In this document: piece by piece, positions 4,956-50,656 of the stretch | Layout of the letters: each line of letters starts with the position of its first letter | How positions within the stretch are numbered: the stretch's first letter is position 1 | Virus genome (UHGV): UHGV-1353844 | Direction: 5' to 3' (one strand) | DNA: 64,000 nt | Source of the DNA: a virus | Program-made: the position numbers and the translations under genes | The notes under the pieces: model-generated | What the model was told of the DNA's origin: nothing | The model's database searches: none | The model's input: the letters and a program-made list of their open reading frames with translations, nothing else

Positions 4956-5020
4956 CAAGTCGTAAAGAGATTACGATGTAATCTCACTAAGGTAATATCT
5001 ATCTGAGAAAAAATTAAATA
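4956..5020 (-). promoter_or_regulatory. conserved early-promoter-like element, copy 1
   Basis: ~65-bp block near-identical to 40923-40990; minus-strand core AGATATTAC; palindrome GATTACGATGTAATC; ~27 bp upstream of start at 4931. Confidence 0.55.
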
Positions 5021-15382: not shown

Positions 15383-15929
15383 TGATTAATTCTCCAGGGC
15401 GGAACCCGTCCAACGCAAGTTTCGTCACAAGAGACGCCAACGTACGTGGTGTGGGGTCAGTAAATACGACCGGAATCGTTCCTTTAAAAGATAAGTGATT
15501 CGGGACTAAGCGAACATCATAAGAATCGAGTTCCTCACTGATAGGCTCGATCATAATGTCGTCTTGGGTCAAATCAATACCGGTCTGAGCAACGATATAG
15601 TCTGCCAGTTCTTGGCTGCTGGTTACTTCGCCTTTCGGTACTGTAACCGGTTCGTCAGCTAAGAACGTTGCCAGGTCAACACGGGTTAAGATGAATTCCT
15701 GGTTCCCTGTAACACCGTTTTTAAAGTCGGCCGCCACTTTCGATTCCAGTCCGTAACGACGGGCTTCGTCTTTCGTCAGTGGTTGCACACCTTTATCGTT
15801 AAAATCGATGTTGTCAGTGGTATAGGATACCCCGAAAACGTAGTTAATACGATCTACCAGAATTTGTTTCGGAGTTTTCGTTAAGTCGACGCGATATGCC
15901 ATGGTTTTCTCACTTAGGTAGCTGGTCAA
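15375..15929 (-). CDS. hypothetical protein (184 aa)
   Basis: ORF track; overlaps neighbours by 8 and 20 nt. Confidence 0.55.
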   Translation of the reverse strand: MTSYLSEKTMAYRVDLTKTPKQILVDRINYVFGVSYTTDNIDFNDKGVQPLTKDEARRYGLESKVAADFKNGVTGNQEFILTRVDLATFLADEPVTVPKGEVTSSQELADYIVAQTGIDLTQDDIMIEPISEELDSYDVRLVPNHLSFKGTIPVVFTDPTPRTLASLVTKLALDGFRPGELINV

Positions 15930-18093
15930 GCGTGAAGCCGTCCAGATCGTTAATTTTCACCTGTTCGTTTAACGTCCAATCGTCAAGCGAAGATTTCACT
16001 TTAACAACCCCGGTAGTCGGCTCGTTAATATCCACCACAACCTGCTGTGTTACTTTCACTCGGATACCCATGTAAATGTTCATCCTGAGTTTGATGTGCT
16101 GTGGCATCGACAGTTCTTTAATAACAGGCGCTGCCGGTAACACAGTGTCGGTGGACATATACTGGTGACGCGTAACTTGCTGTACGCCTAAGAGGGGTTC
16201 AATAATGGTAATCGACCCCTCCCCACTCATAGGGATATCCCCTAAGATAGGACAGAGCGGGTCCATAACGTCGTAAGAATCTGACCCCATTCGTGCAGCA
16301 AAATGTACGGTGTAGGATGACAACTTCGTCATCAGTCGTACCATTGCACGCTGAATCTCAGACTGTGAAATCGTTGCGCGGGTTTCCAGGTTAGTTGCGG
16401 TGTTAAATGCGTCAATAGCAATGTCTTGCCACGTCTCCGCCGAAACCAACGTATAGTCTAACCCAAACGTTTTAAAGAACTCATCGTAGTTACGATAGTT
16501 CAGTTTTAAATCGCAACGATAATCACGGTAATGGTAGTTAAACAGCATCATACCCGCTGCACGGTCAGGAATCTTCCGACGGTTTTGGCTATAACGCCAA
16601 CGACGTCGTTTCTGGGTAATGATTTCATTAACCGTGTCGTAAAGTTCATCAGCACTAAGAATCGTTCCGACGACTTCTGTGTGCGTATCGGTATAATAGT
16701 TAATCAACGCATCGAAACGGTTTTCCCAGCTCGGGATTAAATGTTGTTCCATTTCATCGAATGAAACCCAGCGTTTGATTAACACCCCGAACACGTTGAA
16801 CACAGGAATCTTTTCTAACGCAACGTCAGAATACCCTTTATACGCCGCGTACAAGAACAGCGCCAATAACTCTTTTGAGCTAAGCTTTAAGGTATCCCCG
16901 TTTGTTGGGTTAAGAATCTCGTGGTAAATGTTGTATTTCCCTTTCGCGACGAGATGTACCCATTCGTTAAAGAGGTTATGCAGATACTCGAAGCGCTCAA
17001 TCGCTTCTGGGTCGACTGCTGTAACTTCAATGAGTTTGGTTTTCAGGTTAGGGTATTGCGTTAAACTTAAACGGGTATCTAAGTCTTCCTGATACTCCGG
17101 TTCGTACGCCGGGTTATTGTACGCTAACGCGACTTCCTTCTGGATGATGTCCGTCGTTGTTACAATGTCAAGGTCTCGACCAGAGTCCTTTTCCGTATAG
17201 TTAAGCGATTGCTGATAACCGATCGGTAACGGCGTTAACGTGGAATCGTCATCATCCTTCGGTTCGTGTATTTGCTGCGCAACATTATACCCAACCGCAG
17301 GCATCCCCCAACCTGTCAGTAGCGCATCAATCTGCCAGTCGAAAATCTCCTCTTTCCCTGAGTTACGTTCCCAGTAACGAATATTCCGATAAAGAATGAA
17401 TTTCTGTTTCTGGGTCAAATACGGCATAAACTCGTGAAGTTCTTGGTGTGATGCTAAGAACTCTGTCACGTAAAACGAATGCGTTTCCGTGGTATGCTGT
17501 AAAGAAGAACGAATATACCCGATGATGCCGGGTAACTGCGGATACAGAATACAGTAGAATGCTAACACGAACGCATCGTTGTGAACTTTCCACCCTTCTG
17601 ACATATAGCGAACGTGAGCTGCCCTTATTCTGTCTTCCAATCTCGACATCAGTGACGTCTCTTGCGACTCCACTAATGAACTGTCGTAATAGAGGATAGA
17701 GCAGTCAGCCACACGGATGGCGTAGTTTATATCCACCGGATTAAACACACCCCGGATATAAATCGCGTAGTCAGGATACGTTCTGATCAGCTCCTCAATG
17801 TACCCGCCGTTCGAACGAAATACGTTTGAGGTCTTTTTATGACGGGACAGGTTGGCTGTCGTTAATTCTATCTGCTCTTGCGTGTCGAGCGACGTTATGT
17901 AAATGGGCTTATCCCATTCGTGACGTTGTCCTGCTAAATGCAGGTAGTATCGCCACGTACTTCGGTTATCGGAAACGAAACCGCCGTTCTCGGTTATTGC
18001 CAGATTCATCTGTTGTGCGATTGATTCTGATTTAATAATCAGTGATTTCGCCAACGCGATGTTCTGTTCACGAAATATGTTAAATCTCTGCAT
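15910..18093 (-). CDS. large hypothetical protein (~727 aa), possible virion protein
   Basis: ORF track; track start is TTG at 18105, first ATG is at 18093; head-to-head with plus gene at 18105. Confidence 0.6.
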   Translation of the reverse strand: MQRFNIFREQNIALAKSLIIKSESIAQQMNLAITENGGFVSDNRSTWRYYLHLAGQRHEWDKPIYITSLDTQEQIELTTANLSRHKKTSNVFRSNGGYIEELIRTYPDYAIYIRGVFNPVDINYAIRVADCSILYYDSSLVESQETSLMSRLEDRIRAAHVRYMSEGWKVHNDAFVLAFYCILYPQLPGIIGYIRSSLQHTTETHSFYVTEFLASHQELHEFMPYLTQKQKFILYRNIRYWERNSGKEEIFDWQIDALLTGWGMPAVGYNVAQQIHEPKDDDDSTLTPLPIGYQQSLNYTEKDSGRDLDIVTTTDIIQKEVALAYNNPAYEPEYQEDLDTRLSLTQYPNLKTKLIEVTAVDPEAIERFEYLHNLFNEWVHLVAKGKYNIYHEILNPTNGDTLKLSSKELLALFLYAAYKGYSDVALEKIPVFNVFGVLIKRWVSFDEMEQHLIPSWENRFDALINYYTDTHTEVVGTILSADELYDTVNEIITQKRRRWRYSQNRRKIPDRAAGMMLFNYHYRDYRCDLKLNYRNYDEFFKTFGLDYTLVSAETWQDIAIDAFNTATNLETRATISQSEIQRAMVRLMTKLSSYTVHFAARMGSDSYDVMDPLCPILGDIPMSGEGSITIIEPLLGVQQVTRHQYMSTDTVLPAAPVIKELSMPQHIKLRMNIYMGIRVKVTQQVVVDINEPTTGVVKVKSSLDDWTLNEQVKINDLDGFTLDQLPK

Positions 18094-18104
18094 CGGAGAC
18101 CCCA

Positions 18105-20822
18105 ATGGACGATATTAGTAAATTAACGGGCGACCCCGCCGTAGCTGCAATTCTTCGTAAAACTACGGGCCCAGCACCTCAGCAACAACGCGGTACGCGT
18201 AGCGAGGGTGGTTCTACGCCAACACGTCAAGAACTCACGGCAATTGCGAGTTCACGTATTCGTACTATCAAAAATGCGGAACGTATCTTTGATGCGTTAC
18301 CTGAACTCGAAACAATCGTTACTATTGCAACTTCGAGCCTGCTATCAACAAAAGACTTAATCAACACGACGTTGATTTACGACAACATCGCGGACATCCC
18401 CATTGATCTGCGTAACGCACTACTGACACCGACCCGTGATTATCACGATAACATTCGTCAGCTACCTAAGAAATTATATCAGTGGATTTACGATGCGTTA
18501 AAAACCAAAGGCGCAAGTCCAGTGATGATAATCTCGGATACCGGCTTCGACCAATTATTCGGTCTGAATACAAAGGTCGCTACTGAATCTGTTCGTCGTT
18601 CCCAAACGGCGTTCTTCGAACAACAGCTTGGTATTCTCGGGCCTATTAATGCGCCGAAAGAAGGGCAGCGAGTTGGTGTAGAATCAATTCTCAACCGTTT
18701 ACACGGAGCCGTTACTGGTCCTCAAACGTTGAAAATCGATTTCGGTAAACACGATTCGATGTTCTCGGATAAATTCCAGATGGAAATCACGATTACCGAT
18801 AACCCGCGCATTACCATGCTACCGGATTTGTATCGTCGTATTGCGCATGAGAACGCACGTACGGGATTGTACGGGCAATTAGAGCAAGCCGCATATGAAA
18901 AGCCGTCTACACCAAACGGTGGCAGTCCGTTCGACCCTAACCAATCTTTCGATGACCGTCAGCGTGACGCTGCTGAAAAAGGGTTCATTAACTTGGGTGA
19001 TTTAAACGAGGCGTATAAGTCAACACCGAAAACACAAACGTACGGTGATATTCCTATTATCTCAATGGATGAGAATAACAAAATCGAATACATCGAACGT
19101 TTACTGCCCGCAGAGTCAACGCTGCCACTGGTAATTGGCGATGACGTTCGTAACCCTATCGGTTATCTGACCATCGTAGATGACATGGGTAACTTCATCA
19201 ATGCTCGCTCCTCGCTGTACGGCGATGCGAACTTTATGAACTACCTGAATAACGACGGGATGACGGACAGCATCATTAACCGTTCTAATCTGGGCTTAGG
19301 GAACACTTCTCGTATTACCCCGGAAATCGCCAACCGTTTAAGTGCACGTTGTGGTGAAATCGCTGAAAACGAATTTGCCCGCGCATTAAGTCAGGCACTA
19401 GGTGGCGCAGAAATCAGCATGAATATTACCGAAACTTTCGGTCGTATTCTGTTAGCGCGTCATCTCGCAAAACGTCATACTCAGGTGGTTTACATTCCGG
19501 TTAATAACCTTTGCTATTTTGCAACCGACTTTAACGAAGATGGTATCGGGGTTTCTATTACTGAGCGCTCCTTTATTATCTCTACTGTCAGGATGGCGCT
19601 GCTGTTCGCAACGATGAACTCATCTGTACTGAACTCGGCACGTCACATGCAGTACGACATTGAGCTGTCACCAGATGATGCAAACGGTCAAAAAACCGTT
19701 GACCAAGTTAAATCAGATATCCTTAATTCCTACAATCGACGCCTGCCGATGTGGGGCGATATCAACGACGCCTGGTCAATGGGGGCTAACGCGGGGATTG
19801 CCTTTAACGTAACGGGTAACGATTACTACGCCAGCCACAAAGTGTCTGTGTCTGATACCACGCCGGAGTATAAAGTTCCTGATCAACAAATCGACGAGAA
19901 CCTGTTACGCCGTACATGTCACATCGCGTGTGTTGATCCTGACCTTGTACTTACCCCGGAGAACCTGGAGTTTGCTTCTCAGATTTATTCTAAATCGCTG
20001 TTGGTCACTCAACAGATTGTGAAGAAACAGGAAATCCTCTCAACCCCGCTTACGCGCTACGTTACAAACAGTCTGCAAGCTTCACCGAAACTGCAAGCAG
20101 AACTCATCCGTATTATCGTTGAGTATATCCGTGAGCAGAATCCGGATGTATCTAGCGAAGAGATGACAAAACAAACGTCAGAGTATATGGCGAAGTTTAT
20201 CAACGGTATGAAGGTCACCTTGCCACCGCCTGATACTTCTGCAACAGCATCTCAAGCTGATCTCTTCGATAAACGCTATGAATTTATCGAGAAACTTGCA
20301 GATCTGGTGGTCACGGATGACATTGCTAATATGCTTCAGAACGAAGGTATTGAAATGTCACCTGATGACCTCAAGACGATGGTTAAGACCTTCTACGCGC
20401 GCAACTGGCTACGTAATCAGGGCATCGAAACCGATCTGTTTGATTTGATCTACGATGAAGATAAACGTGGTGAAAACGTCAAGATGATTTCTGATGAGAT
20501 TGCAGCGGCATCGAAGACGCTGATTCAGTTAGCAAAACGTGCGACAGGTAAAGTTCAGACGTTAGCAAAAGCAGCCGATCTGAATCCTGAAGACGCCAAT
20601 AACTTCGGCGGTGGCGGCGACTTCGGTGGCGGCACTGAAGACGATGGTGGCTTAGGAGGCGATGAGGACTTAGGTGGTGACGATCTGGGCGGTGATGAAG
20701 ACTTGGACATGACCGATGATGAAACGACGGAAACCGATACGACGACGGAAGAAGACGTTTCAACTGAAGGCACGGACGAGACGGATACCGGCGCAGATGA
20801 CAACACCGATGAAACTCTCTAA
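18105..20822 (+). CDS. large hypothetical protein (905 aa) with acidic low-complexity C-terminal tail
   Basis: ORF track; GGAG RBS 6 nt upstream; C-terminus GGGGDFGGGTEDDGGLGGDEDLGGDDLGGDEDLD...; terminator 20851-20870. Confidence 0.65.
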   Translation: MDDISKLTGDPAVAAILRKTTGPAPQQQRGTRSEGGSTPTRQELTAIASSRIRTIKNAERIFDALPELETIVTIATSSLLSTKDLINTTLIYDNIADIPIDLRNALLTPTRDYHDNIRQLPKKLYQWIYDALKTKGASPVMIISDTGFDQLFGLNTKVATESVRRSQTAFFEQQLGILGPINAPKEGQRVGVESILNRLHGAVTGPQTLKIDFGKHDSMFSDKFQMEITITDNPRITMLPDLYRRIAHENARTGLYGQLEQAAYEKPSTPNGGSPFDPNQSFDDRQRDAAEKGFINLGDLNEAYKSTPKTQTYGDIPIISMDENNKIEYIERLLPAESTLPLVIGDDVRNPIGYLTIVDDMGNFINARSSLYGDANFMNYLNNDGMTDSIINRSNLGLGNTSRITPEIANRLSARCGEIAENEFARALSQALGGAEISMNITETFGRILLARHLAKRHTQVVYIPVNNLCYFATDFNEDGIGVSITERSFIISTVRMALLFATMNSSVLNSARHMQYDIELSPDDANGQKTVDQVKSDILNSYNRRLPMWGDINDAWSMGANAGIAFNVTGNDYYASHKVSVSDTTPEYKVPDQQIDENLLRRTCHIACVDPDLVLTPENLEFASQIYSKSLLVTQQIVKKQEILSTPLTRYVTNSLQASPKLQAELIRIIVEYIREQNPDVSSEEMTKQTSEYMAKFINGMKVTLPPPDTSATASQADLFDKRYEFIEKLADLVVTDDIANMLQNEGIEMSPDDLKTMVKTFYARNWLRNQGIETDLFDLIYDEDKRGENVKMISDEIAAASKTLIQLAKRATGKVQTLAKAADLNPEDANNFGGGGDFGGGTEDDGGLGGDEDLGGDDLGGDEDLDMTDDETTETDTTTEEDVSTEGTDETDTGADDNTDETL

Positions 20823-20850
20823 ATAGCAAAAAAAATAATTCGAGCTTACT

Positions 20851-20870
20851 CCGACCCTTCTGGGGTCGGG
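20851..20870. terminator. bidirectional terminator between convergent genes
   Basis: CCGACCCC-ttct-GGGGTCGG with A-run before and T-run after. Confidence 0.6.
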
Positions 20871-20884
20871 GTAGCTTTCTTTTT

Positions 20885-23215: not shown

Positions 23216-24991
23216 TTAACGGCCAATCTTCGCAATATCTTCTTCGGTTGCTTGGATTAACTCGTCAAGTTTTGGATTACGAACCATCACTAACTGACGG
23301 CTAGTTTTCATGTACGGGTTAAGGATACCCCATTTGAACGGGGACGATTTCGGAATGTAATAAACGTTACCGCACTCCAGATGCGATGCAGAAGCGTGTT
23401 TCGTACGGTCATTAAGGTTAACCGTTTTACCGCCTTTGCTGTTACGTTTAGATTCCGTTTCAGTTTGACTAATCGCGTGTGTGGATACTCCTAGTACCAT
23501 GGACTCTGTTGATGCGTTGAAATAACTTACACCGCCGTTACCAGTGATATTACGCAACACCAGACTCGTGACAATTTCTTTATTGAGTGCGCTACGAATC
23601 ATATTCGCGCAGGATTCTGGCGAACGATTCTCCGTTTGTCCCAGATGGAAACGAATAGCCGCTACCGTTGGTGTAAACCCACGGTCACCTAACAGTAAGT
23701 AGTCAGTTACGGTTAAACGTTTTCCGTACATCGACGGAATGTCACCCTGTTTAGTCAAACGGGTACGTACCATCAGTTTCGTTGCATACCAGAAGAAATC
23801 AAACATATCCATGTCGTCTGGAATGTCAGGATCGGTCATCTTCAGTTCTGCACGGAACGTTGAGTTAACGTAGCGATCGCATTCAGTATAGTGTTTCGCC
23901 ATACTGTGCGCTAACTCAATATCGGAAGGTTTCAGTCCTACGATACTTCTTCCCAGAATCTCACGCCAAATCGGAGCAGAGTTCAGGTTAGCAATATCGT
24001 CTTCCATCGCTAACTCGTTAATTGCGGTAAACAGCGGCGGGAGCGGCGTGACGTTACCGTTCTTAATGGATTGTTTACTGCAATAGTAGTGAGCGGCTTT
24101 GAAGAACGCAGCAATTGCGGCCAGCAACAAATGCTCGTTTTGATCCCAACCAACTTTATCCACGTTCGGCAATGCTTCTGCGGGTACGACAACCGCGTAC
24201 ATTATCGAACGGTTATATTTCGATTCACCGGAACTGATTACAACTTTCTCGTTGAGATCGAGTTCTGGGATCTTAAACGATGGATAAATTTCTACGTCAA
24301 CACCAGTATAGCGTTTAATCGCTTCTTTAAATCCGTAACGTCCGAACAACCAATACATTAACGGTTTCTCGTCAGTATCAGGATGTGTTGCGTTCTTCGC
24401 TTTGAACAGGTTTTTGGTTCCTGGTAAGAATAGCTCCTCTTTTTTACCGTTGACTAACACACGGACAGGTTGCTTACAGAATTTCAACGAGGCTTTACGT
24501 TTAAAGTCAAAGTTAACAAATACCCCACCGTGTTCGCGACAGATACCTGGCTGGTGAATAACCGGTGCAACGTGATACGTCGTACCGTAATAGTTCATTA
24601 AACCACCACGACGGATAAAGGGTAAGTTAATCGGTCTTGAGATCGGTCGAGAATCTCCTGGAATACGGAATGTTGACATGACCATATACGCATCAGTATT
24701 CGCAATGGACATCACACCACGACGTCTATCCATTCTGCTGCTCTCAGAACGAGACAGCTTATAGATGAACGTTTCAAACGGTGACATTAACCGTACACCT
24801 AATACAGCCAGCCCTTCAGGAACACGCGGATTATCAACAGGATGATAATCCAGCTCACGTTTCAAGATAATCTGAACACGCTCGTGTATACCGTCTTTGG
24901 CCTGTGTATAACCGACACCTTCCGCAATCGCTCGGTTAAAGGGTACTATTTTGCCATCCTCTTTAAGCTTTCTGATTGCATCTTTAAACAC
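23216..24991 (-). CDS. hypothetical protein (591 aa)
   Basis: ORF track; operon context. Confidence 0.6.
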   Translation of the reverse strand: MFKDAIRKLKEDGKIVPFNRAIAEGVGYTQAKDGIHERVQIILKRELDYHPVDNPRVPEGLAVLGVRLMSPFETFIYKLSRSESSRMDRRRGVMSIANTDAYMVMSTFRIPGDSRPISRPINLPFIRRGGLMNYYGTTYHVAPVIHQPGICREHGGVFVNFDFKRKASLKFCKQPVRVLVNGKKEELFLPGTKNLFKAKNATHPDTDEKPLMYWLFGRYGFKEAIKRYTGVDVEIYPSFKIPELDLNEKVVISSGESKYNRSIMYAVVVPAEALPNVDKVGWDQNEHLLLAAIAAFFKAAHYYCSKQSIKNGNVTPLPPLFTAINELAMEDDIANLNSAPIWREILGRSIVGLKPSDIELAHSMAKHYTECDRYVNSTFRAELKMTDPDIPDDMDMFDFFWYATKLMVRTRLTKQGDIPSMYGKRLTVTDYLLLGDRGFTPTVAAIRFHLGQTENRSPESCANMIRSALNKEIVTSLVLRNITGNGGVSYFNASTESMVLGVSTHAISQTETESKRNSKGGKTVNLNDRTKHASASHLECGNVYYIPKSSPFKWGILNPYMKTSRQLVMVRNPKLDELIQATEEDIAKIGR

Positions 24992-26012: not shown

Positions 26013-26094
26013 GTAAGGGCCAGATTAAGTTTTAATAATGGTACATATCTTTAGTCTTAAATGTATTTTTTCCATAAAGTCTCCTTTAAACCAA

Positions 26095-26135
26095 CTGACA
26101 GTCTCCCATTGATAATATCTATCCAAAAAATAATA
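26095..26135 (-). promoter_or_regulatory. early-promoter-like element, copy 4 (more divergent)
   Basis: Plus-strand TTGATAATATCTATCCAAAAAATAATAG resembles copies 1-3; upstream of gene 25002..26012. Confidence 0.4.
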
Positions 26136-26156
26136 GAAAGAAAAAAAAATAAAAGG

Positions 26157-26178
26157 TCTAAGCCCCGAAGGGCTTAGA
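26157..26178 (-). terminator. intrinsic terminator after capsid-like gene
   Basis: TCTAAGCCC-cgaa-GGGCTTAGA; A-run upstream on plus. Confidence 0.6.
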
Positions 26179-26194
26179 CACTTTTTATTCGGTA

Positions 26195-28480
26195 TTATTT
26201 ACCAGCTTTGTCTTTACCGTCGCCAGCAACATTACCTGCTACACCACCTTCGGTTTGTTTCTGACCGTTCTGTTCTACAGAAACGTTGTAAGCCAGTTTT
26301 TCTTCAACCAGTTTGGTGATGCCTTTAACCCAAATCAGACCAGTGATCGGGCAGTGGCAGATATGCGCGTTACGCGGCTGTACAGCCAGTTCTTTAGAAG
26401 TAGAACCGTTACGCTGGATGTTGATGTTGGTAACCATGATCGGAGACCAGAAGTGGTTACCCCAGTTCAGTACGCAGTAGGAACCATCGTCCGCAGTCGG
26501 AACTTTCAGGAACCATTGCAGACGACGAGTCCAGGAATCGTCAGCTGCGTTGTAGATACGCCAGCGGTCATCGTTGGTGGTAACGACTTCGTATTCATAA
26601 CGGTCGCCCAGCAGACGTTGGTCGCCCTGAACCAGCAGCAGCATAGATGCAGTCGGTTCGTCAGTTGCGATAATAACTTTCGGCAGAATGTCCGGATCAG
26701 CGGTCAGCAGGCGCAGTGCAGGAATGAAACGAGAATCCTGGATAGCCTGAGTTACCTGGCTACCGATACGCTGCAACAGACCCTGACGAGCGTTGATCAG
26801 CGCTTCTTTGGTATCCAGAGACTGAACAACTTCATCGACTTTGTAGTCAGACTCTTTGAACCACGGAGCAACCCAGTGACGGCCCAGACCACGGATGGCC
26901 GGTTTGTCCCACGGAGTGATCATCGCAGCGGCTGCGTTACGTACTGCTTCGGTGTAAGACAGCGTCTGAGTAATCGCCAGCTGTTCGTTACGGATGTTCA
27001 CCGCAGAGATCAGGTCGTCCAGACGTTCAGTGTCGTCGTATTCAACACCAACTGGAGACTTGGTCAGAATCGGAGAACCGTATTGCAGTTTGTAGTTTTC
27101 CTGTTCCCAAATTGGGTCAAGCAGCAGACCCTGGGTACGACGGTTTTCGTTGGTACGAGTACCATCGAAGCGCCAGCCCATCAGTTCGAGCTTCAGGCCG
27201 TCCAGGATAACTTTACCGGTGCCAGACTTGGTATCAACTTTGTTACCAGTTGCATCGTACAGACCTTCGATTTCCAGTTTGTGGCCGGAAATGTCTACTT
27301 TACCACCGAACTGGCCGCTGGTGAACAGGGACATGGTGATGGTGATAACGTAGCGCAGGGTGTAGGAGTTCTGACCCAGTGCTTGCAGAGCCGGAATAGC
27401 TGCACCAGTCCAGTCGGTGGTTTTCGCATTCAGAGAGAACGCGGTACGACGGAATTGCAGAACCAGTTCACGGCCGTCACCTTCAGCAGGACGCTGGAAG
27501 GTTGCGAACTGCATGTCACGAACGTGCAGTTTGATGAATTTACCCGCTCTCGCTTCTTCGGTCGGTTTACGTACAGAAATCAGCAGGCTGCCCAGAGCAC
27601 AACCCGGTGCGATTTCATCAGTTTCATCGTAACCTTCCTGAACGATACCCGGATGCGCAGACAGCTGGAACAGGTTCAGCGTGTCGTTTGCAAAGCTCAG
27701 GTAGTTAGTCGGATACGGAGGTACACGACCCAGGCGAACGGTTTCGTTCGGAACCAGTTCTTCGCTTACGAAGTATTCCTGGTTTTCACCGGTTTCCATT
27801 ACGTAAGGAACGATGTTGATCGCTTCGTCCTGGAGAACGGTGTGGTCAGTCAGTGCGTTGTGCAGCGGACGACGATGGTCTTCAACCACGTCTTTGCTCA
27901 GCAGCGCGTTCATGATACCGCGAGAAACGGTAGTCACTTTAGTACGTACGGTAATACCAACATCGTTGGTGTCAACGGTAATGGTCGGGAACAGTGTTTC
28001 AGCAAACTTGGACTGAGTTTCCAGAGCACGTACGTTCAGGGTCCAGGTCAGGCCCAGGTTTTTGTCGTAGTCTTTGTTGCTATAGTATTCCTGAGCAACA
28101 ACCATGCGCTCACGACCCCAGTCACCACCTTGCGCACCAGGGATACCAATATCCAGGTTATACTTGCTGTGGAATTCCGGCTTAGCGTATTCCTGGGCAA
28201 CACGTTCTTGCAGGTCTTTACCGTGGTTAGCTGCGCCCAGAATCATTGCGGAGGCGACAGTCGCAGCATGAGACATTTTCTTGCCGCCAAAAGCGTTGGC
28301 ATAGTGCTGTGATGCTTCGTCACGCAGAGCGCCAAATACTTTTGCGTTGCTACGTACGGACTCGCCTGCAACAATCGTATTCCACATTTCGCTGGCGGTG
28401 TTGTTGCCGATGACGTTTTGGGCCAGACTAGTACCGGCTTCTACGAGTTTCTCTAAATTAGAGATTCGGGTATCTTTCAT
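26195..28480 (-). CDS. putative major capsid protein (761 aa, phiKZ-like size class)
   Basis: Strong host-optimal codon bias (CTG, CGT, GGT, ACC, GAA); size typical of jumbo-phage capsid proteins; N-terminal AGE|S and AQE|Y motifs; terminator 26157-26178. Product is inferred, not searched. Confidence 0.5.
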   Translation of the reverse strand: MKDTRISNLEKLVEAGTSLAQNVIGNNTASEMWNTIVAGESVRSNAKVFGALRDEASQHYANAFGGKKMSHAATVASAMILGAANHGKDLQERVAQEYAKPEFHSKYNLDIGIPGAQGGDWGRERMVVAQEYYSNKDYDKNLGLTWTLNVRALETQSKFAETLFPTITVDTNDVGITVRTKVTTVSRGIMNALLSKDVVEDHRRPLHNALTDHTVLQDEAINIVPYVMETGENQEYFVSEELVPNETVRLGRVPPYPTNYLSFANDTLNLFQLSAHPGIVQEGYDETDEIAPGCALGSLLISVRKPTEEARAGKFIKLHVRDMQFATFQRPAEGDGRELVLQFRRTAFSLNAKTTDWTGAAIPALQALGQNSYTLRYVITITMSLFTSGQFGGKVDISGHKLEIEGLYDATGNKVDTKSGTGKVILDGLKLELMGWRFDGTRTNENRRTQGLLLDPIWEQENYKLQYGSPILTKSPVGVEYDDTERLDDLISAVNIRNEQLAITQTLSYTEAVRNAAAAMITPWDKPAIRGLGRHWVAPWFKESDYKVDEVVQSLDTKEALINARQGLLQRIGSQVTQAIQDSRFIPALRLLTADPDILPKVIIATDEPTASMLLLVQGDQRLLGDRYEYEVVTTNDDRWRIYNAADDSWTRRLQWFLKVPTADDGSYCVLNWGNHFWSPIMVTNINIQRNGSTSKELAVQPRNAHICHCPITGLIWVKGITKLVEEKLAYNVSVEQNGQKQTEGGVAGNVAGDGKDKAGK

Positions 28481-28492: not shown

Positions 28493-29017
28493 TTAATGAG
28501 ATAAATGACATGCGTATAATTGCGTCAGCACTTCGTTAGCGGCAAACTGCGTTGAGGTACTGAAGCAGTCATCCACGACGCGAGTCTTGGTACGCATATA
28601 TTTAAAAAGTTCTGCGCAGAACATCTTTTTCGCAGCGTGGTCTTCACCCGAAGAAAAACCCGAACCGGACTTCGCTTCTGCAAATGACGCCACAATCGTA
28701 TCACCACGTTGGGTAAAGACCCAGCGTAAGCGACAAGGAATTGTTTCCCCATATAAATCGTCAAGGGAAACCTTTTCGCCTGATTCGACCAGACGTAACA
28801 CCTGATCATAATATTTACCTGGAAGTACAGGCGGAGCCATTAACGCTTTATAAATAGCAGAACGACTTACTTCAGGTATAATGATAGAACTGAAACCATT
28901 CGGACAGTCATATAACCAGTTAAAGAACCCTGCCTGGAGCAATTCTACACTTTTAACGGCAGCGCCTTTATCTATGTTAGGCTGAACTTCCCACGGTGGA
29001 CTAAAACGAATTTGCAT
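28493..29017 (-). CDS. hypothetical protein (174 aa)
   Basis: ORF track; start 13 nt from divergent plus gene. Confidence 0.55.
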   Translation of the reverse strand: MQIRFSPPWEVQPNIDKGAAVKSVELLQAGFFNWLYDCPNGFSSIIIPEVSRSAIYKALMAPPVLPGKYYDQVLRLVESGEKVSLDDLYGETIPCRLRWVFTQRGDTIVASFAEAKSGSGFSSGEDHAAKKMFCAELFKYMRTKTRVVDDCFSTSTQFAANEVLTQLYACHLSH

Positions 29018-29030
29018 TTAAGGATGCTCC

Positions 29031-30593
29031 ATGAATAACAAAATGATGTTGATAACCGCATTAGCCACACTATACACTGAAAGTCTGCTGACCGACCCTG
29101 AGAAGGATCACGAGGTCATAAGAAAAGTGCTGTTAGAGGCTAAGCTTCCTGATTACGTAGAGGAAGGTGACGAACGTGCCGCCCTCGTCGAAATCAAGGA
29201 TATCATCACATCCATCATAGACGGCGGTATGCCTTACGACCACACAAACGTCATGAAACGTTTGAAGTTGGCCACTACGCAAATACGTCCTCTATACGAT
29301 ACGATTACCAAATTCCTGGAAGATGATATTCCAGAAGAACCAGAAGCACGCATCGAGCATCTTAACCGTCAAGTAGCACAATACTACTTCCAATTACGTC
29401 AAGCTATTCAAGGCGTACAACTGAAACAAAAATTAGGTCGTACGTTAGGCGCACTGAACGGAACAGAAACGCGCGTTGATTTACAAACGGCGCTCAACGA
29501 CCTCAGAGATAGTCTCTCTACGTTCAGTGAACGCTCTCATAATAAGATTCCCTCACTAGTTGGTGAGCTTATTACGGATAACCGTGCACCGTTCGTACAT
29601 GTGTTCGACTCAATCAGTAAGAAAGCAGCGGGTAACGGTTTACGTACCGGATGGAAAGCCATTAACCAGATGCTGGGTTGTAACAAAGGGATTACCGAAG
29701 AACTTTGGCTGATGCCTGCACTGCCTTTTAACTGTAAATCACTTTTTAGTCTGTTGTTGTCTATCAGTATTCCGGTATTCAATACACCTGAAAAAGTAAT
29801 GGAAAACGTTAAAGGGGATTTGCAGCCGGTTATTCTCGATTTAAGTTTAGAGAACGAACTGGACGTTAACTTGGCGTATGCGTACCAAGCGCTCTACGGT
29901 CATTTTGAAGGTGAAGCGCCGGTTATGGTTGCTTCTGAAAACGCTACCGACGAAGAGAAAGCTTTGCACAACACAAAAATGTCGGACTACCTCTGTAGTA
30001 AAATGCGGGCTAACGGTTGGGAGTACATCTTTCAGAAACACACAAACTCAGATTTTAAAATACACTACTTAAACGACTTAATACTGGACTTAAAGCGTCG
30101 AGGTTATCATGTAGCTGGGATTCGCGGAGACTATTTCGGGACTATCAGTAAAGCAGGTCACGGTAACGGGATTGCCGGTAGCGACATTAAAGAAATTTAT
30201 CGTATCGCTCGAAACATCCAGGTAGTACGTAACCGTGGTTTCTTGTTAGCACCACACCAAATCTCACCAGAAGGCAAAAAATTAAAAGCGTTAGACCCAG
30301 CAAGTTTCTGTAAGAACTTGCCAGGTCGCGGTCTTTACGATAACTGCTCCAGCTTGGATAACGAAGCTGACGGTGAGATGTATTTTAACAAACGTGTTGT
30401 CAATGGGCATAGTTACTTAGAAGTACAACGTGGTAAACACCGTACAATTATCGATACTAAAGAAGCTTACCATTATACAGTAATACCTTTCCGTGAAGTT
30501 GGCATTCTGCCATGGGATTGCGATAAAGAAGAAACAGTAACTGCATCGTCGATAAACGTCTTTACAGGCGGTATGGGTGACGAACTCTTTTGA
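29031..30593 (+). CDS. hypothetical protein (520 aa)
   Basis: ORF track; AAGGA RBS; followed by UUCG hairpin and U-tract terminator. Confidence 0.6.
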   Translation: MNNKMMLITALATLYTESLLTDPEKDHEVIRKVLLEAKLPDYVEEGDERAALVEIKDIITSIIDGGMPYDHTNVMKRLKLATTQIRPLYDTITKFLEDDIPEEPEARIEHLNRQVAQYYFQLRQAIQGVQLKQKLGRTLGALNGTETRVDLQTALNDLRDSLSTFSERSHNKIPSLVGELITDNRAPFVHVFDSISKKAAGNGLRTGWKAINQMLGCNKGITEELWLMPALPFNCKSLFSLLLSISIPVFNTPEKVMENVKGDLQPVILDLSLENELDVNLAYAYQALYGHFEGEAPVMVASENATDEEKALHNTKMSDYLCSKMRANGWEYIFQKHTNSDFKIHYLNDLILDLKRRGYHVAGIRGDYFGTISKAGHGNGIAGSDIKEIYRIARNIQVVRNRGFLLAPHQISPEGKKLKALDPASFCKNLPGRGLYDNCSSLDNEADGEMYFNKRVVNGHSYLEVQRGKHRTIIDTKEAYHYTVIPFREVGILPWDCDKEETVTASSINVFTGGMGDELF

Positions 30594-31246: not shown

Positions 31247-31276
31247 TTTGATACCTCACTTAGTGTCTTAATGTTA

Positions 31277-31395
31277 GGCTAACAGTTCGTTAGCCGCCTA
31301 AGTAGGGACTGCCTATACAGTCCCTACTGCTTTATCTTCTCTTTCGAAAAGATAAAGCTATGATAAGGGGTGTGTCACCACCCCTTGTTTTTTTA
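31277..31395. other. four-hairpin structured intergenic module 2
   Basis: Hairpins at 31277-31295, 31302-31327, 31330-31357 and 31367-31384 followed by T-run; hairpin 3 differs from module 1 by compensatory changes (aac/gtt vs atc/gat). Confidence 0.55.
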
Positions 31396-31554
31396 TCAGT
31401 TACTTCTCCTTTCAACTATCAACTGGGTGTTTCTTGGATAAGCAACTTTGGGCTGAGTTAACGTTGGTTGCGCTATTTCACTAACCCTACGTTGAAATTC
31501 GAGCTGTTTTACGGACAACTCGTTTAACCTTTGAAACAACTGTTCATGTTTCAT
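31396..31554 (-). CDS. small hypothetical protein (52 aa), not in ORF track
   Basis: Hand-translated MKHEQLFQRLNELSVKQLEFQRRVSEIAQPTLTQPKVAYPRNTQLIVERRSN; GGAG ~9 nt upstream. Confidence 0.3.
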   Translation of the reverse strand: MKHEQLFQRLNELSVKQLEFQRRVSEIAQPTLTQPKVAYPRNTQLIVERRSN

Positions 31555-31598
31555 GAACTTTTCTCCTATGTTGAAGTTGCGAAAATAAATAAAGTGTA

Positions 31599-31624
31599 CC
31601 CCTAATCCCGAAAAGGATTAGGGG
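31599..31624 (-). terminator. intrinsic terminator
   Basis: CCCCTAATCC-cgaaaa-GGATTAGGGG; A-rich upstream on plus. Confidence 0.6.
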
Positions 31625-31630
31625 TTGCTT

Positions 31631-32446: not shown

Positions 32447-32477
32447 CTTTTATGCTCCAATTAATAAAAAAATTAAG

Positions 32478-32493
32478 GGCACCCGAAGGTGCC
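32478..32493 (-). terminator. intrinsic terminator (UUCG loop) after lipoprotein gene
   Basis: GGCACC-cgaa-GGTGCC preceded by AAAAAAATTAA. Confidence 0.55.
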
Positions 32494-32500
32494 TTATACA

Positions 32501-32644
32501 TTAACCACGACCAGTGCACTGCGCAACGGAATTACCGTTGTCGATGCAAGTGTCGTAGCCTTTATCGATGTCCAGGTACAGGCAACCCAGAACAACAGCG
32601 ATAACAACAGCGAAGATAGCTTTTTTGTGTTTTACAGAAATCAT
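32501..32644 (-). CDS. small lipoprotein (47 aa precursor, lipobox VLG|C), not in ORF track
   Basis: Hand-translated MISVKHKKAIFAVVIAVVLGCLYLDIDKGYDTCIDNGNSVAQCTGRG; AGGAG 7 nt upstream; early-promoter-like element upstream; UUCG terminator 32478-32493. Confidence 0.55.
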   Translation of the reverse strand: MISVKHKKAIFAVVIAVVLGCLYLDIDKGYDTCIDNGNSVAQCTGRG

Positions 32645-32671
32645 GATATAGCTCCTAATTAGGTATTCGAT

Positions 32672-32735
32672 AAATGAGTATTACGTAATTCTCTCACCTA
32701 AGTAATATATATCTGAAAATATTTTAATTAAAACA
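32672..32735 (-). promoter_or_regulatory. conserved early-promoter-like element, copy 3
   Basis: Divergent copy (ATTACGTAAT palindrome, core TATATATTAC) upstream of lipoprotein gene. Confidence 0.5.
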
Positions 32736-32849
32736 CCCTCTAAAACGCGCTGTATCGCATTCTGACAGCCTTTTATTTTTTTAAACACCATTAATCGTCT
32801 TAAGGTGTAAAACAGCGTCTAAGACGCATTCACGAGTAAATAAAAGGAC

Positions 32850-32877
32850 ATCCCGTTACCCACAAAGGTAACGGGAT
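32850..32877 (-). terminator. intrinsic terminator
   Basis: ATCCCGTTACC-cacaaa-GGTAACGGGAT preceded by A-rich tract. Confidence 0.55.
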
Positions 32878-32881
32878 AATT

Positions 32882-40922: not shown

Positions 40923-40990
40923 ACAAGTCGTAAAAAAGATTACGATGTAATCTCACTAAGGTAATATATATCTGAAATTATTTTTAATCG
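40923..40990 (-). promoter_or_regulatory. conserved early-promoter-like element, copy 2
   Basis: Near-identical to copy 1; minus-strand core TATATATTAC; same palindrome; upstream of gene starting at 40899. Confidence 0.55.
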
Positions 40991-41052: not shown

Positions 41053-42315
41053 TTATTTAGACTTTTCGTACGCTGCGATACCGGCGCTGATATAACCGTT
41101 AACACCGCTAACCAGGTTTTTCTGAGTAGAAGCAACAACCTTCTCGCACAGGGATACTGCGCCGCGAATGCTGTTAACATAGCGACGTGCAACACGTACG
41201 CCTTCAGTCAGTTCTGGTTTTTCATCGATCTTAACGTTATCGATTTCTTTCAGCAGTTTCTCGATAGACTGAGCGAACTTCTCACGAGCCTGCTCGGTCT
41301 TACGGTATTCGAGAACGTTCTTCTCAATCTGTTTGCCCAGATCGGTGAAGAAGCTGTTCAGTTTAGCCAGTTCGCTTACAGACGGAGTTTTCACGCTGGT
41401 TTCAACAGAGTTTTCTGCTTCAACGTGAGTGAAGCTAAAGCCACCATCTTCATCGAAGTGGGTCTGCATAACCATGTTGCCCAGACGGAATTCTTTGTCG
41501 CCGTCTTCTTTAGAAAGCGCAGCAAATTCAGCACGCAGTTGCTCAGCCTGAACACCATTAGCTTTGGATACGCCTGCAACCAGAGCGGTACCAGAAGCCA
41601 GCAGTGTCGGAACGTGTTTGCTGTAGAAAGAAGAAACACGGCTCATCGCGTCTTTCAGGCGCGGTACATCGTTACCAACGAATTTACCGTCAACTGACAG
41701 GCACTTGATGAAACCACCAGAGATTTCATCTTTCTTCTGTTTGCCCAGCTTACGAATAGCTTCGTCGTATTTCTTCGCACGACCCTGGATAGATTTACCC
41801 TGGTTGTGGAATTTCAGCCAACGATCTTTCAGTTTGCGGCCTTGCTCTTTCAGCCATTCCCAGAAACGTTTCAGGAAGGCTTTAATGTCATCCCACAGGG
41901 ATTCACGAGCAACCTGACGACGGTTACGAGCGCCGTAGGATTCGTGAGCGACGGAGGAACGGTGTTCGAAGTTCCAGCGAGAACGGATAGATTCCTGAGC
42001 AACATCCAGCGCTTTAGCAGCGTCGTCCGGCATGTCTTCTTCAGCATCCATCGGGTCTTCGCCATCTTCAGCACCTTCGCCGTCAGCGGAAGCCTGAGCT
42101 TCGTCCAGAACGTCCAGCTGCGCATCGGTTTCGTCGCCGTCTTCCGCCAGCAGCTCTGCGTCAGCGTCCAGCGCTTCGATCGGTTTAGTGTCGTGCTCGA
42201 TATCAGCCAGAGTACCTTCGATAGACTCTGCTGGCAGCTCAATACCATCTGGAACGACAGTAGAGTTCGCTTCCATTGACTCACGAGCAATTTTGTTTTT
42301 GTAGAAATTCGCCAT
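41053..42315 (-). CDS. abundant virion (head) protein candidate, paralog 1 (420 aa)
   Basis: Strong optimal-codon bias; acidic N-terminal region with repeated A-x-E|S motifs (ARES, AQES, AHES); conserved termini MANFxK... / ...AGIAAYEKSK shared with paralog 2. Confidence 0.6.
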   Translation of the reverse strand: MANFYKNKIARESMEANSTVVPDGIELPAESIEGTLADIEHDTKPIEALDADAELLAEDGDETDAQLDVLDEAQASADGEGAEDGEDPMDAEEDMPDDAAKALDVAQESIRSRWNFEHRSSVAHESYGARNRRQVARESLWDDIKAFLKRFWEWLKEQGRKLKDRWLKFHNQGKSIQGRAKKYDEAIRKLGKQKKDEISGGFIKCLSVDGKFVGNDVPRLKDAMSRVSSFYSKHVPTLLASGTALVAGVSKANGVQAEQLRAEFAALSKEDGDKEFRLGNMVMQTHFDEDGGFSFTHVEAENSVETSVKTPSVSELAKLNSFFTDLGKQIEKNVLEYRKTEQAREKFAQSIEKLLKEIDNVKIDEKPELTEGVRVARRYVNSIRGAVSLCEKVVASTQKNLVSGVNGYISAGIAAYEKSK

Positions 42316-42395: not shown

Positions 42396-43667
42396 TTACT
42401 TAGATTTTTCGTAAGCACCGATACCAGCACCCAGGTAACCGTTCAAACCGCTAATTACGGTGTTAGCAACATAACTAACGGCACGGTTCAGGGTCTGGTA
42501 GTTCTTAACAGACTGGTCAGCAGCTTGGCGTGCATTACGCAGACCATCCCACTTGCTTTCGTCTTTTTCGCTGTTCAGCGCGTTAGCAGCTTTCTCAGCG
42601 GCCTGTTGCAGTTTTGCAATCTCTGCATCGTAAGCACGGAAGTCTTTCAGTACAGCTTCGAAGCCTTTACCGATAGATTCCAGAGAAGAAGCAGCGCCAG
42701 CCATTTCAGAAACAGACGGAGTTTTCACGTCTTTATCGTCAGAGGCATCGCCAGTGCTCATGAATGCAACAGCGGTAAATTTGTGACCGCCAGCCAGTTC
42801 TTTAGTACCGGACTGAACGTATGCGTTACCCGGCAGAGCCAGAAGTTTGGACGCATCGCCGTTTTCAAAGTTCGGCAGGTTATGCAGTTTAGAAGCTGCT
42901 TTACCGAACAGTTCTACCGGCTGATCGCCACGCATTGCTTTGAATGCTTCGTCATCGCCTTTGGTTACAGCAGTAACAGCTTCACCAGCTTGTTTTTCCA
43001 GTGCGCTGATAGCACCTTTAGCTTTACCAGAGGTTACTTCTTTCGCGATAGCGATAGAGCCAGCTGCATCGAATTTACCTTCAATGGACAGCTTAGTAAT
43101 GAAACCACCGGAGATGGTATCATTTTTCTGTTTGCCCAGCTTGCGCAGCATTTCCTGATATTTCTTCGCACGTTTCTGTGCGGTCTTACCGACGTTGAAA
43201 TATTTCAGTTTCAGGTCTTTGATCTTCGCAATCACTTCTTTACAGAACTGAATGAAACGCTCGTAAAGACCTTTCAGGGTTTCTTTCCAGCCTTCCTGCG
43301 CAGCAGCAGTCATGCCACGGCCACGGCGATAGGATTCGCGAGCCAGTTTGGTGCGTTCCAGGTTCCAACGACGTGCGATGGATTCCTGAGCCACTTCTTG
43401 CAGGGCAACCGCTTCTTCCGGCATTTCTTCACCGTTAGCAACGGCTTCTTCCGCCTGATCGATAGCGTCTTCAGTACGCTCAGTATCGGCGGCCAGAGTT
43501 TCACCGTCGGTTTCCAGCTGTTCGAGCTGACCGTCGATAGAGGCTACGTCTGCAAGCTGGACGTCCAGGTTCTCTTCTGCCGGTTCAACGTTGCTGATAC
43601 CGTCGATTACTTCATCGGCCGCTTCCATTGATTCACGAGCGGCGCGAGTTTTTGCGAAATTTGCCAT
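42396..43667 (-). CDS. abundant virion (head) protein candidate, paralog 2 (423 aa)
   Basis: Same architecture and termini as paralog 1; AAGGAAA RBS; palindrome GGTTATATAACC upstream. Confidence 0.6.
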   Translation of the reverse strand: MANFAKTRAARESMEAADEVIDGISNVEPAEENLDVQLADVASIDGQLEQLETDGETLAADTERTEDAIDQAEEAVANGEEMPEEAVALQEVAQESIARRWNLERTKLARESYRRGRGMTAAAQEGWKETLKGLYERFIQFCKEVIAKIKDLKLKYFNVGKTAQKRAKKYQEMLRKLGKQKNDTISGGFITKLSIEGKFDAAGSIAIAKEVTSGKAKGAISALEKQAGEAVTAVTKGDDEAFKAMRGDQPVELFGKAASKLHNLPNFENGDASKLLALPGNAYVQSGTKELAGGHKFTAVAFMSTGDASDDKDVKTPSVSEMAGAASSLESIGKGFEAVLKDFRAYDAEIAKLQQAAEKAANALNSEKDESKWDGLRNARQAADQSVKNYQTLNRAVSYVANTVISGLNGYLGAGIGAYEKSK

Positions 43668-45250: not shown

Positions 45251-46357
45251 TTAAAGAACTGGCTGTGCGCCAGAGCGATACGCTTCAATGATTTTGTTCA
45301 CATCGGCGCTACCGGACTTCGCTTTGCTGAAATCGGATTTATCAAGTTCCTGAGAACCGTTCTGACCACGAGTATAAATAGTAACGCGGTTCCACGCGGT
45401 GTCCACTACCACGTAATAGACGGTTAAGGTGTCTTTGAAGACACGTTGACGAATATTGAAATCGTCAAACTCACCGCCTAGCTGGGCAGTCAGGCCGTCG
45501 ATAGTGTCTTGAGAAACCACCATAACAGAAGAAGCGTTATTAATAGACGGTGCCAGCGTCAGCAAGCCAGACAGCCAGTTGCCGTTTTTCTTCTCCATCA
45601 TCTTACGATAGTAACCTGACTTATCGCGATAACGGTTCTTACGGTATTCTTCTACCAGGTCGTTACAGAACGCAATGTCTTTAACATAGCTCAGTGCACC
45701 TACACGCGCACGCAGCCAACGTTCCCAGAACGTTTTCGTCTGGTCGCTGAATGCAATCAGGGTTTCAATCTGCTCAGTCGGAAGAGACTTAACGTCCAAA
45801 CGTAAACGCATTGGAAGTTCGACTTTATTACCGTCACGTTCAAACGTTACAGAGAACATTTTCCCGTTAGACAGCCCTTCCTGATCGAACAGTTGTTTAA
45901 TCGGGTCTGCTTTACCACCGGTAACGGAACCTTTGGATTCCTGTGCGACACGGCGGGTGGATTCACCCACAGCAATGCCGATTTTATCGTATGATGGTAA
46001 TCCGAGGCGGGAAGATTCGCCGACTGCCAGTGCTGCTAAGCGTGAGCCGCTACGCACTGCGTTATCGAGTGCGCTACGACGGGTACTTACTTGATCTAGC
46101 GTACCGATAATATCAACGTCAGGCACACCCGTTAACAGCGAGATTGCAGTAAGTTGGTTTCCTGCCAGCAAAACTTGGATTTTCTCCAGAATTCCCGGAA
46201 GGTAATCTAAACCCAGCAGGCTTTGTTCGACTAAGGTAATGTGCTCGTTATAGAGCACTGAGTTAAATTCCTCCGTCGACTCCGCACGCGAACGAAACAG
46301 CATGGGAAGTCTGGAGAGGAAAGAGACAACGCTTGTCTCAAACGTTTTTTCTAACAT
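45251..46357 (-). CDS. hypothetical protein (368 aa)
   Basis: ORF track; divergent from plus gene at 46384. Confidence 0.6.
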   Translation of the reverse strand: MLEKTFETSVVSFLSRLPMLFRSRAESTEEFNSVLYNEHITLVEQSLLGLDYLPGILEKIQVLLAGNQLTAISLLTGVPDVDIIGTLDQVSTRRSALDNAVRSGSRLAALAVGESSRLGLPSYDKIGIAVGESTRRVAQESKGSVTGGKADPIKQLFDQEGLSNGKMFSVTFERDGNKVELPMRLRLDVKSLPTEQIETLIAFSDQTKTFWERWLRARVGALSYVKDIAFCNDLVEEYRKNRYRDKSGYYRKMMEKKNGNWLSGLLTLAPSINNASSVMVVSQDTIDGLTAQLGGEFDDFNIRQRVFKDTLTVYYVVVDTAWNRVTIYTRGQNGSQELDKSDFSKAKSGSADVNKIIEAYRSGAQPVL

Positions 46358-46383
46358 TTTCCTAATGAACTCCGGAGTTAAAG

Positions 46384-50642: not shown

Positions 50643-50656
50643 AAAAATAAAAAGCT

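Follow-up and report, generated by a model that had tools for sequence, protein, structure and literature searches.

The window analysed here is the whole 64,000-nt stretch of the virus genome UHGV-1353844, and this report concerns the transcription of the gene pairs that stand head to head within it. Megablast searches with two parts of the window gave ∼74% nucleotide identity to the Erwinia phages phiEaH2, Asesino and Stratton and to Salmonella phage SPN3US and its relatives. The gene order is shared with phiEaH2, Asesino and SPN3US, the SPN3US counterpart lying at roughly 36-101 kb in reversed orientation. The core genes for the portal (gp129), gp128, the major capsid protein and the gp119-like protein are orthologous and syntenic with those of SPN3US and phiKZ. 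Judged from its sequence, the phage is an undescribed species-to-genus-level relative in the SPN3US/Erskinevirus group, which belongs to the nucleus-forming, phiKZ-related jumbo phages with two RNA polymerases. The open reading frame (ORF) table and the gap list show a long minus-strand array broken by four plus-strand islands, each with a divergent junction at its start and a convergent junction at its end; these four divergent junctions are the only ones in the window. They lie between the gp128-like gene, which heads a long minus-strand operon, and the portal gene (J1), between the gp119-like and helicase genes (J2), between two virion structural genes (J3), and between a virion structural gene and the DNA polymerase gene (J4). 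The junction genes are probably served by tiny TATG promoters that lie antisense in the coding sequence of the partner gene and are used by the phage's own multisubunit non-virion RNA polymerase (nvRNAP).

Start codons were fixed by N-terminal alignment with five annotated relatives. At J1, ATG 18093 (-) and ATG 18105 (+) are separated by an 11-nt spacer (18094-18104), and the N-terminus MQRFNIF encoded from ATG 18093 aligns with that of every relative. The initial annotation had described the J1 starts as overlapping, with no intergenic DNA, which the 11-nt gap contradicts. The TTG at 18105 was rejected as a start of the minus gene; it is a mere mechanical ORF extension, and relatives with a spacer of 12-15 nt do not keep it. 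The starts given earlier for J2, 29017 (-) and 29031 (+), and for J3, 46357 (-) and 46384 (+), were correct and leave spacers of 13 nt (29018-29030) and 26 nt (46358-46383), respectively. For J4 the pair 54189/54228 had been listed. GTG 54189 is only the maximal ORF extension, and the conserved start of the minus gene is ATG 54156 (protein MGYWQ..., with AAGGAAA 7 nt upstream). The distance to ATG 54228 (+) is then 71 nt (54157-54227), and this one junction of the four is not especially tight. Overlapping or abutting divergent starts were found at none of the four junctions.

Across all non-redundant relatives collected, the spacers measure 11-15 nt at J1, 11-14 nt at J2, 21-26 nt at J3 and 68-87 nt at J4. 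These spacings are kept across at least five genera, and independent GenBank annotation agrees with them. The gp128-like/portal pair is head to head elsewhere as well, with spacers of 35 nt in phiKZ, 32 nt in Deimos-Minion (Agricanvirus) and 27 nt in Goslar, and it is annotated as overlapping in Xoo-sp14. By contrast, divergent genes of the SPN3US early region stand 163-280 nt apart. The spacings at J1-J4 are conserved in all relatives, and we concluded that the tight head-to-head arrangement is real, old and under selection, and is not due to chance.

The spacers of J1-J3 consist of two back-to-back Shine-Dalgarno (SD) sites, one per strand, and nothing else, and they are conserved in length and sequence. 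In the J1 spacer, CGGAGACCCCA, GGAG serves as the portal SD 5 nt before the portal ATG; back to back with it on the other strand, GGGG(T) serves as the SD of the minus gene, 5 nt before its ATG. SPN3US, phiEaH2 and Asesino have this same spacer, letter for letter. The J2 spacer, TTAAGGATGCTCC, holds AAGGA as the helicase SD and, on the opposite strand, GGAGC as the SD of the minus gene. A perfect 12-nt palindrome, AACTCCGGAGTT (46368-46379), with GGAG on both strands, occupies the J3 spacer; it is kept in all relatives and occurs once in the window. We read this palindrome as a two-way SD site, and it may also be a protein-binding site. A short motif common to all four junctions had been suggested earlier. 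The spacers share only SD sequences, and neither TATG nor any other shared motif was found in the spacers of J1-J3. Since these spacers hold only SD sites, normal 5′ leaders must begin in the partner coding sequence.

A rival view is that transcription begins right by the junction, so that mRNAs have very short leaders or none. The obvious site for this is the TATG at 18076-18079 (+): the window, phiEaH2 and Asesino all carry TATGTTA here, 26 nt before the portal ATG, and the ∼25 nt on either side of J1 are highly conserved. However, this TATG is kept in only 0.44 of relatives (the counterpart is AATG in SPN3US, TATA in Wellington and Earl, and GATA in Machinavirus), and it was rejected as a promoter. 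The spacers of J1-J3 offer no other shared candidate, and the good SD sites of both genes in each pair argue against leaderless translation. We consider initiation at the junctions very unlikely, and favor start sites deeper in the partner genes.

Conservation was tested on codon alignments of the window genes that have at least four non-redundant (<93% identical) orthologs, which gave 33 genes and 39.5 kb with 5-13 relatives. The orthologs came from SPN3US, from Erskine-, Machina-, Wellington- and Derbicus-viruses, and from IMG/VR contigs and GenBank records; relatives were gathered through the helicase, a virion protein and the gp128-like protein, and portal-based IMG/VR scans yielded few loci. 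For all 256 4-mers, each of which covers a third codon position, we determined the share of window occurrences that are invariant in all relatives. Coding-strand CATA, which is antisense TATG, was invariant at 9 of 39 occurrences, compared with a background of 2.3% invariant positions (p = 2e-7). The eight junction-flanking genes carry 9 invariant copies out of 19, and the other 25 genes carry 0 out of 20 (Fisher p = 4e-4). Within the junction-flanking genes antisense TATG ranks first of the 256 4-mers (p = 5e-10).

Each of the nine invariant sites faces the junction, at a distance of 55-799 nt from the start codon that it would serve. Together they point at seven genes; among the junction genes, only that of the DNA polymerase lacks one. 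The invariant blocks extend over 8-15 nt and take in several third-codon positions. In their common layout, a T-rich stretch covering about -9 to -4 leads into TATG, and the next base is usually A or G. On the sense strand, TATG was invariant at only 5 of 100 sites; the gp119-like gene, ahead of the major capsid gene, contains two of them, and another two are found upstream of a gene for an internal head protein. TATG is also rarer in all 67 coding sequences of the window than in their synonymous-codon shuffles, both in sense (171 vs. 276, z = -9.5) and in antisense orientation (54 vs. 97, z = -5.7), and TATC is enriched (z = +7.6). The depletion of TATG is suggestive of avoidance of spurious nvRNAP starts, and codon-pair effects may also account for it.

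The conserved T-rich-TATG blocks could instead reflect peptide and codon preference, antisense RNAs, RNA structure or a protein-binding site. The encoded peptides are indeed conserved (HKK, AYE, NID, VIRK, SHNKIP, PSYDK, NHMM, FIP and HTKDG), the T-run is made by Lys AAA codons, and weak hairpins precede four sites. Against this explanation, invariant CATA is confined to the junction-flanking genes although overall invariance is similar in the two gene sets (2.7% in junction-flanking genes vs. 2.1% in the others), and the amino-acid-constrained control 4-mer TGGG is equally conserved in both. Every site is oriented into the divergent gene, and the motif equals the experimentally defined core of the phiKZ nvRNAP promoter. 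A function other than that of a promoter is in our view improbable, to about the same degree as initiation at the junctions, and we continue to regard the blocks as candidate promoters.

The candidate sites are listed in Table 1 with the genes and other features of the window. The candidate for the portal gene contains the 9-mer TTTTATGAC, which is identical to that of the phiKZ promoter P070. The farther of the two blocks in the helicase gene (29538-29541) has an invariant run of 15 nt. At the helicase candidate, TATG is kept in 11/11 relatives and CTTTT(T)WAC, 15 nt upstream, is also conserved; the AAAWTTAC and TATAG parts of the J4 element are kept in 9/9 relatives. Weak hairpins lie directly before four conserved T-rich-TATG sites, at 17810-17830 (+), 18919-18903 (-), 44127-44108 (-) and 54366-54352 (-). 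Because a hairpin precedes the T-rich stretch, a simple scan labels these sites as terminators. The succession of hairpin, T-run and TATG recalls the intergenic terminator-promoter units of phiKZ. A further block was seen in the gp119-like gene at 28600-28622 (-), ∼120 nt upstream of the capsid start at 28480, where the 23-nt sequence GTTCTGCGCAGAACTTTTTAAAT is invariant in all 11 relatives. It consists of a 14-nt perfect palindrome and a T-run, and ATATG follows directly in the window. The block may work as an attenuator or a terminator, or it may belong to a promoter of the capsid gene, for which phiKZ P067 in gene 119 offers a comparison.

Table 1. Genes, candidate promoters and terminators around the four divergent junctions (leader, distance from the predicted +1 to the start codon; relatives, number in which the block is invariant)
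Feature	Coordinates	Strand	Details
gp128-like virion protein gene	15910-18093	-	29% identity to PHIKZ128, E 4e-85, collinear; phrog_3222
Portal gene, ortholog of phiKZ gp129 and SPN3US gp81	18105-20822	+	single-gene island
Homolog of phiKZ gp123, nvRNAP beta-like subunit	23216-24991	-	phmmer E 1.8e-17 to PDB 7OGP chain E
Major capsid gene	26195-28480	-	directly downstream of the gp119-like gene
phiKZ gp119-like head gene	28493-29017	-	synteny with SPN3US and phiKZ; phrog_8266
DnaB-like replicative helicase gene	29031-30593	+	phrog_3213, E 7e-199; single-gene island
Virion structural gene, ortholog of SPN3US 'virion structural protein 4'	45251-46357	-	
Two virion structural genes in one island	46384-47688 and 47688-50642	+	
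Virion structural gene, ortholog of SPN3US 'virion structural protein 1'	52822-54156	-	start ATG 54156
DNA polymerase gene	54228-56009	+	phrog_3011, E 2e-252; single-gene island
RNA polymerase beta subunit match	56580-57881	-	phrog_2962
Candidate promoter, portal gene	17838-17841	+	invariant TTTTTATG(AC) in gp128-like coding sequence; +1 G17841; leader 264 nt; 9/9 relatives
Candidate promoter, operon starting at 18093	18892-18895	-	invariant TTCATATG in portal coding sequence; +1 18892; leader 799 nt; 10/10 relatives
Candidate promoter, helicase gene (middle type)	28950-28976	+	CTTTTAAC-N15-TATG in gp119-like coding sequence; +1 G28976; leader 55 nt
Candidate promoter, gp119-like/major-capsid operon	29117-29120	-	invariant CTTTTCTTATGA in helicase coding sequence; +1 29117; leader 100 nt; 13/13 relatives
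Second block, gp119-like/major-capsid operon	29538-29541	-	GGAATCTTATTATGA in helicase coding sequence; +1 29538; leader 521 nt; 13/13 relatives
Candidate promoter, gene 46384	45990-45993	+	invariant TTATCGTATGA in coding sequence 45251-46357; +1 45993; leader 391 nt; 9/9 relatives
Candidate promoter, gene 46357	46639-46642	-	invariant TATGGTT in gene 46384; +1 46639; leader 282 nt; 9/9 relatives
Second candidate promoter, gene 46357	46929-46932	-	invariant TGGTATGAA in gene 46384; +1 46929; leader 572 nt; 9/9 relatives
Candidate promoter, gene 54156	54339-54342	-	invariant TTAGTATGGA in DNA polymerase coding sequence; +1 54339; leader 183 nt; 9/9 relatives
Candidate promoter element, DNA polymerase gene	54174-54201	+	AAATTAC-N16-TATAG in J4 spacer; predicted +1 near G54201, 27 nt before ATG
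Terminator hairpin, convergent end of portal island	20846-20874	+	strong; 13-bp stem and T-run
Bidirectional terminator, convergent end of J3 island	50656-50683	both	T-runs
Bidirectional terminator, convergent end of DNA polymerase island	56023-56051	both	

The late promoter of the phiKZ nvRNAP has been defined experimentally as a 4-bp core, T(-3)ATG(+1) (PMC4666361, PMC12809450). All four bases are needed in vitro and the neighbouring bases are dispensable, with an undefined downstream contribution (PMC4666361; PMC7598289). The window candidates are alike in having the same 4-bp core after a T/A-rich stretch and in being directed at portal, head and virion genes, and a gp123 homolog is encoded in the window as well. 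They differ in that the window motif comes from conservation and the phiKZ motif from transcript ends. The host of the window phage is moreover an enterobacterium, the proteins of the two phages are only 22-29% identical, and the gp123 pocket is only partly conserved.

The placement of a promoter inside the partner gene is experimentally documented at the orthologous gp128/gp129 junction of phiKZ. The ONT-cappable-seq data place the site of transcription start (TSS) for the 'late promoter' P070 (...AAATTTTATGA) at 130258 (+) (bioRxiv 10.1101/2023.10.13.562163, Table S3/S5). On the phiKZ sequence we checked that this TSS (...TTTTATGA) lies ∼70 nt within the gp128 coding sequence and 106 nt before the gp129 ATG. 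The transcription unit TU100 contains gp129 alone and ends at a convergent terminator, where the opposite-strand gp130 unit ends too (bioRxiv 10.1101/2023.10.13.562163). In both phages the pair is head to head, with the gp128-like gene on the minus strand and the portal gene on the plus strand (SPN3US gp81 has been named portal; PMC5105663). The phiKZ spacer is however 35 nt instead of 11 nt, and the distance from TSS to ATG is 106 nt as compared with 264 nt for the window candidate. A second parallel is P119L, the model late promoter of phiKZ (gene 119/major capsid): the candidate at 29117 (-) would serve the orthologous operon. In phiKZ the gp118/gp119 junction measures 211 nt and P119L is intergenic, whereas in the SPN3US-like clade only 11-14 nt are left at this junction and the candidate falls within the helicase gene.

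The middle promoters of phiKZ carry the sequence AAanTTACc centred near -24, and the TSS is often at (T)ATG. Two window elements resemble them, AAATTAC-N16-TATAG at J4 and CTTTTAAC-N15-TATG at J2. Both lie upstream of replication genes, and their spacing from AC to +1 is 18-20 nt, as in phiKZ examples. They are unlike the phiKZ middle promoters in that J4 has TATAG for TATG and the J2 copy is within coding sequence. To our knowledge, middle promoters are not used by the phiKZ nvRNAP in vitro.

The case for read-through alone would be that there are no local promoters, and that distant starts give antisense transcription through the islands and the minus-strand array. The terminator of the portal island has a clean T-run on the plus strand only, phages of this kind commonly have long polycistronic units, and phiKZ gp128 has no mapped TSS in the ONT-cappable-seq data (bioRxiv 10.1101/2023.10.13.562163). 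However, bidirectional terminators close the islands of J3 and J4, minus-strand terminators at 26179, 21557 and 21262 precede the portal island, and there are no plus-strand genes in the 18 kb upstream of the portal gene. The phiKZ gp130 unit does not run past the convergent terminator, and the portal gene of that phage has a TSS of its own. Read-through would also leave the junction-specific conservation of antisense TATG unexplained, and we rate it slightly below the two alternatives above. The terminators at 50655-50684 and 56023-56051 were seen to share a 12-bp stem, CTACCCTACTCC...GGAGTAGGGTA (4 arm matches vs. 0.14 expected), and a hairpin at 31583-31623 is akin to them.

As the user of local TATG promoters, a phage enzyme is at hand. 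Split beta/beta′-like subunits of a non-virion RNA polymerase are encoded in the window, and the enzyme is a multisubunit RNA polymerase, not one of the T7 type. Pfam gave no hits for five candidate polymerase proteins, as expected given their divergence, and a PDB search with the product of 56583-57881 gave none. The pocket of phiKZ gp123 binds TATG as single-stranded non-template DNA (PMC12809450). In the gp123 homologs, aligned at 22% identity, F151 and H331 of this pocket are invariant and Y406 is replaced by F/W; H185, Y399, K158 and K190 align to unlike residues. It is most unlikely that the junction genes are transcribed by the host sigma-70 polymerase or by a single-subunit polymerase of the T7 kind, which would need a promoter of 17-23 bp. 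One weak sigma-70-like site (9/12 matches) lies on the minus strand of the J4 spacer, but shuffled sequences contain more such sites than the real one (25 vs. 18; 18 vs. 12), no repeated promoter of 17-23 bp occurs at the four junctions, the sole repeated long motif in the window is an early promoter that is absent from all of them, and transcription in the phiKZ family is independent of the host polymerase (PMC7598289).

This early promoter, AGATATATATTAC, is of the AT-rich phiKZ type (...GATCTATATTAC) and is found at 4992, 32702 and 40961, with a variant at 26102, always in intergenic DNA. On the minus strand the motif reads (T)TTCAGATATATATTAC (4992-5004, 32702-32714, 40961-40973), and the variant is at 26102-26134; the motif lies within repeated blocks of 33-56 nt, and GTGAGA typically follows after 7-8 nt. 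The distribution implies that early transcription units, read by the virion RNA polymerase, are scattered through this mostly structural region. Compact promoters of other phages include the T4 late promoter TATAAATA (gp55) and the T7-type promoters of 17-23 bp. The nvRNAP of AR9 recognizes U-containing promoters in the template strand (PMC7598289). All of these are short, phage-specific and permit dense gene packing, as would the promoters proposed here; they are unlike them in sequence, polymerase and recognition mode, and the junctions contain no repeats of such motifs.

Our preferred account of the junctions is as follows. The middle and late genes would be transcribed by the phage's own nvRNAP from promoters made of a T-rich stretch and TATG, with the G as the first transcribed base. 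So small a signal could fit into the synonymous positions of a neighbour's codons, and because the promoter is tiny, the intergenic DNA could shrink to 11-26 nt at three of the junctions. Each junction gene would have one or two promoters placed antisense in the coding sequence of its partner, 55-799 nt from the start codon and not at the junction itself. The replication genes would use a variant of the phiKZ middle type, with AAAWTTAC or CTTTTWAC ∼16 nt upstream of TAT(A)G, which is inside the partner gene for the helicase and in the 71-nt spacer for the DNA polymerase. The initial annotation had placed both promoters of each pair inside the partner coding sequence. The geometry, comparative genomics and the published phiKZ data favor this for J1-J3, and at J4 it fails for the DNA polymerase element, which is intergenic. 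Its further suggestion of very short promoters of the kind used by phage RNA polymerases gains support from the invariant antisense T-rich-TATG blocks pointing at seven junction genes. We infer that the motifs act as transcription starts and that a form of the nvRNAP uses them.

Several points count against this account. The start sites at the conserved TATGs are predictions. The peptides encoded at the motifs are conserved, so that the nucleotide invariance is partly at the protein level, and the relatives compared are phylogenetically non-independent. Leaders in the phiKZ examples measure 46-106 nt, and some of those predicted here are longer (391 and 799 nt). A phiKZ promoter requires TATG but is not defined by it alone, and the lack of a mapped TSS for gp128 has been mentioned above. 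The motif positions are not orthologous between phiKZ and the SPN3US-like clade, the shared 9-mer TTTTATGAC standing at a different codon. In the gp123 alignment, only three of the seven residues of the TATG pocket are clearly conserved or conservatively replaced. The bipartite 'middle' pattern TTWAC-N14-17-TAT(A)G is not enriched window-wide (16 vs. 10.6 ± 3.5), a scan pattern that missed the J4 copy, and the assignment to the 'middle' class rests on the conservation at two loci, J2 and J4.

Two other regions of the window were noted. The genes at 41053-42315 and 42396-43667 are adjacent paralogs with direct repeats of 142 nt and 46 nt that are ∼71-74% identical. Their counterparts in SPN3US and Asesino are the 'internal head protein' genes, which also stand in tandem. 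The long gaps at 26013-26194, 31247-31630 and 32447-32881 (182-435 nt) contain several hairpins and, on the minus strand, short unlisted ORFs with good SD sites, e.g., a 16-codon ORF, MEKIHLRLKICTIIKT. An unlisted ORF of ∼47 codons in the same set, starting MISVKHKKAIFAVVIAVVLG, has a membrane-like appearance.

With promoters facing each other across a junction, the divergent transcripts would overlap at their 5′ ends, by ∼140 nt at J2 and J4, ∼650 nt at J3 and ∼1050 nt at J1. It is conceivable, but rather unlikely, that this arrangement is itself functional, with transcriptional collision or RNA duplex formation between the fully complementary leaders acting as a built-in 'excludon'-like switch. 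If true, the switch would turn off a middle (replication) gene when transcription of the late (structural) operon sets in, and would balance expression within the structural pairs; an excludon-like device would then be conserved in a jumbo phage lineage.

The phenomenon described here is a trait conserved in the family and agrees with the promoter code already known from phiKZ; it leaves the present view of transcription in jumbo phages as it was. No published TSS map for the SPN3US/Erskinevirus group was found in the literature. We believe that the comparative evidence for a TATG code in the SPN3US-like clade, the start-site predictions and the face-to-face promoter pairs with 140-1050 nt of complementary leader have not been reported before. 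The four-base promoter code of phiKZ is extended to the enterobacterial SPN3US/Erskinevirus group through sequence comparison alone, and eight to ten precise start-site predictions result. The code would explain how the intergenic DNA of head-to-head genes came to be reduced to two ribosome-binding sites. For the annotation of these phages, it means that promoters should be looked for inside genes, on the antisense strand; for their engineering, that synonymous recoding or deletions near the junctions would silence the neighbouring gene.

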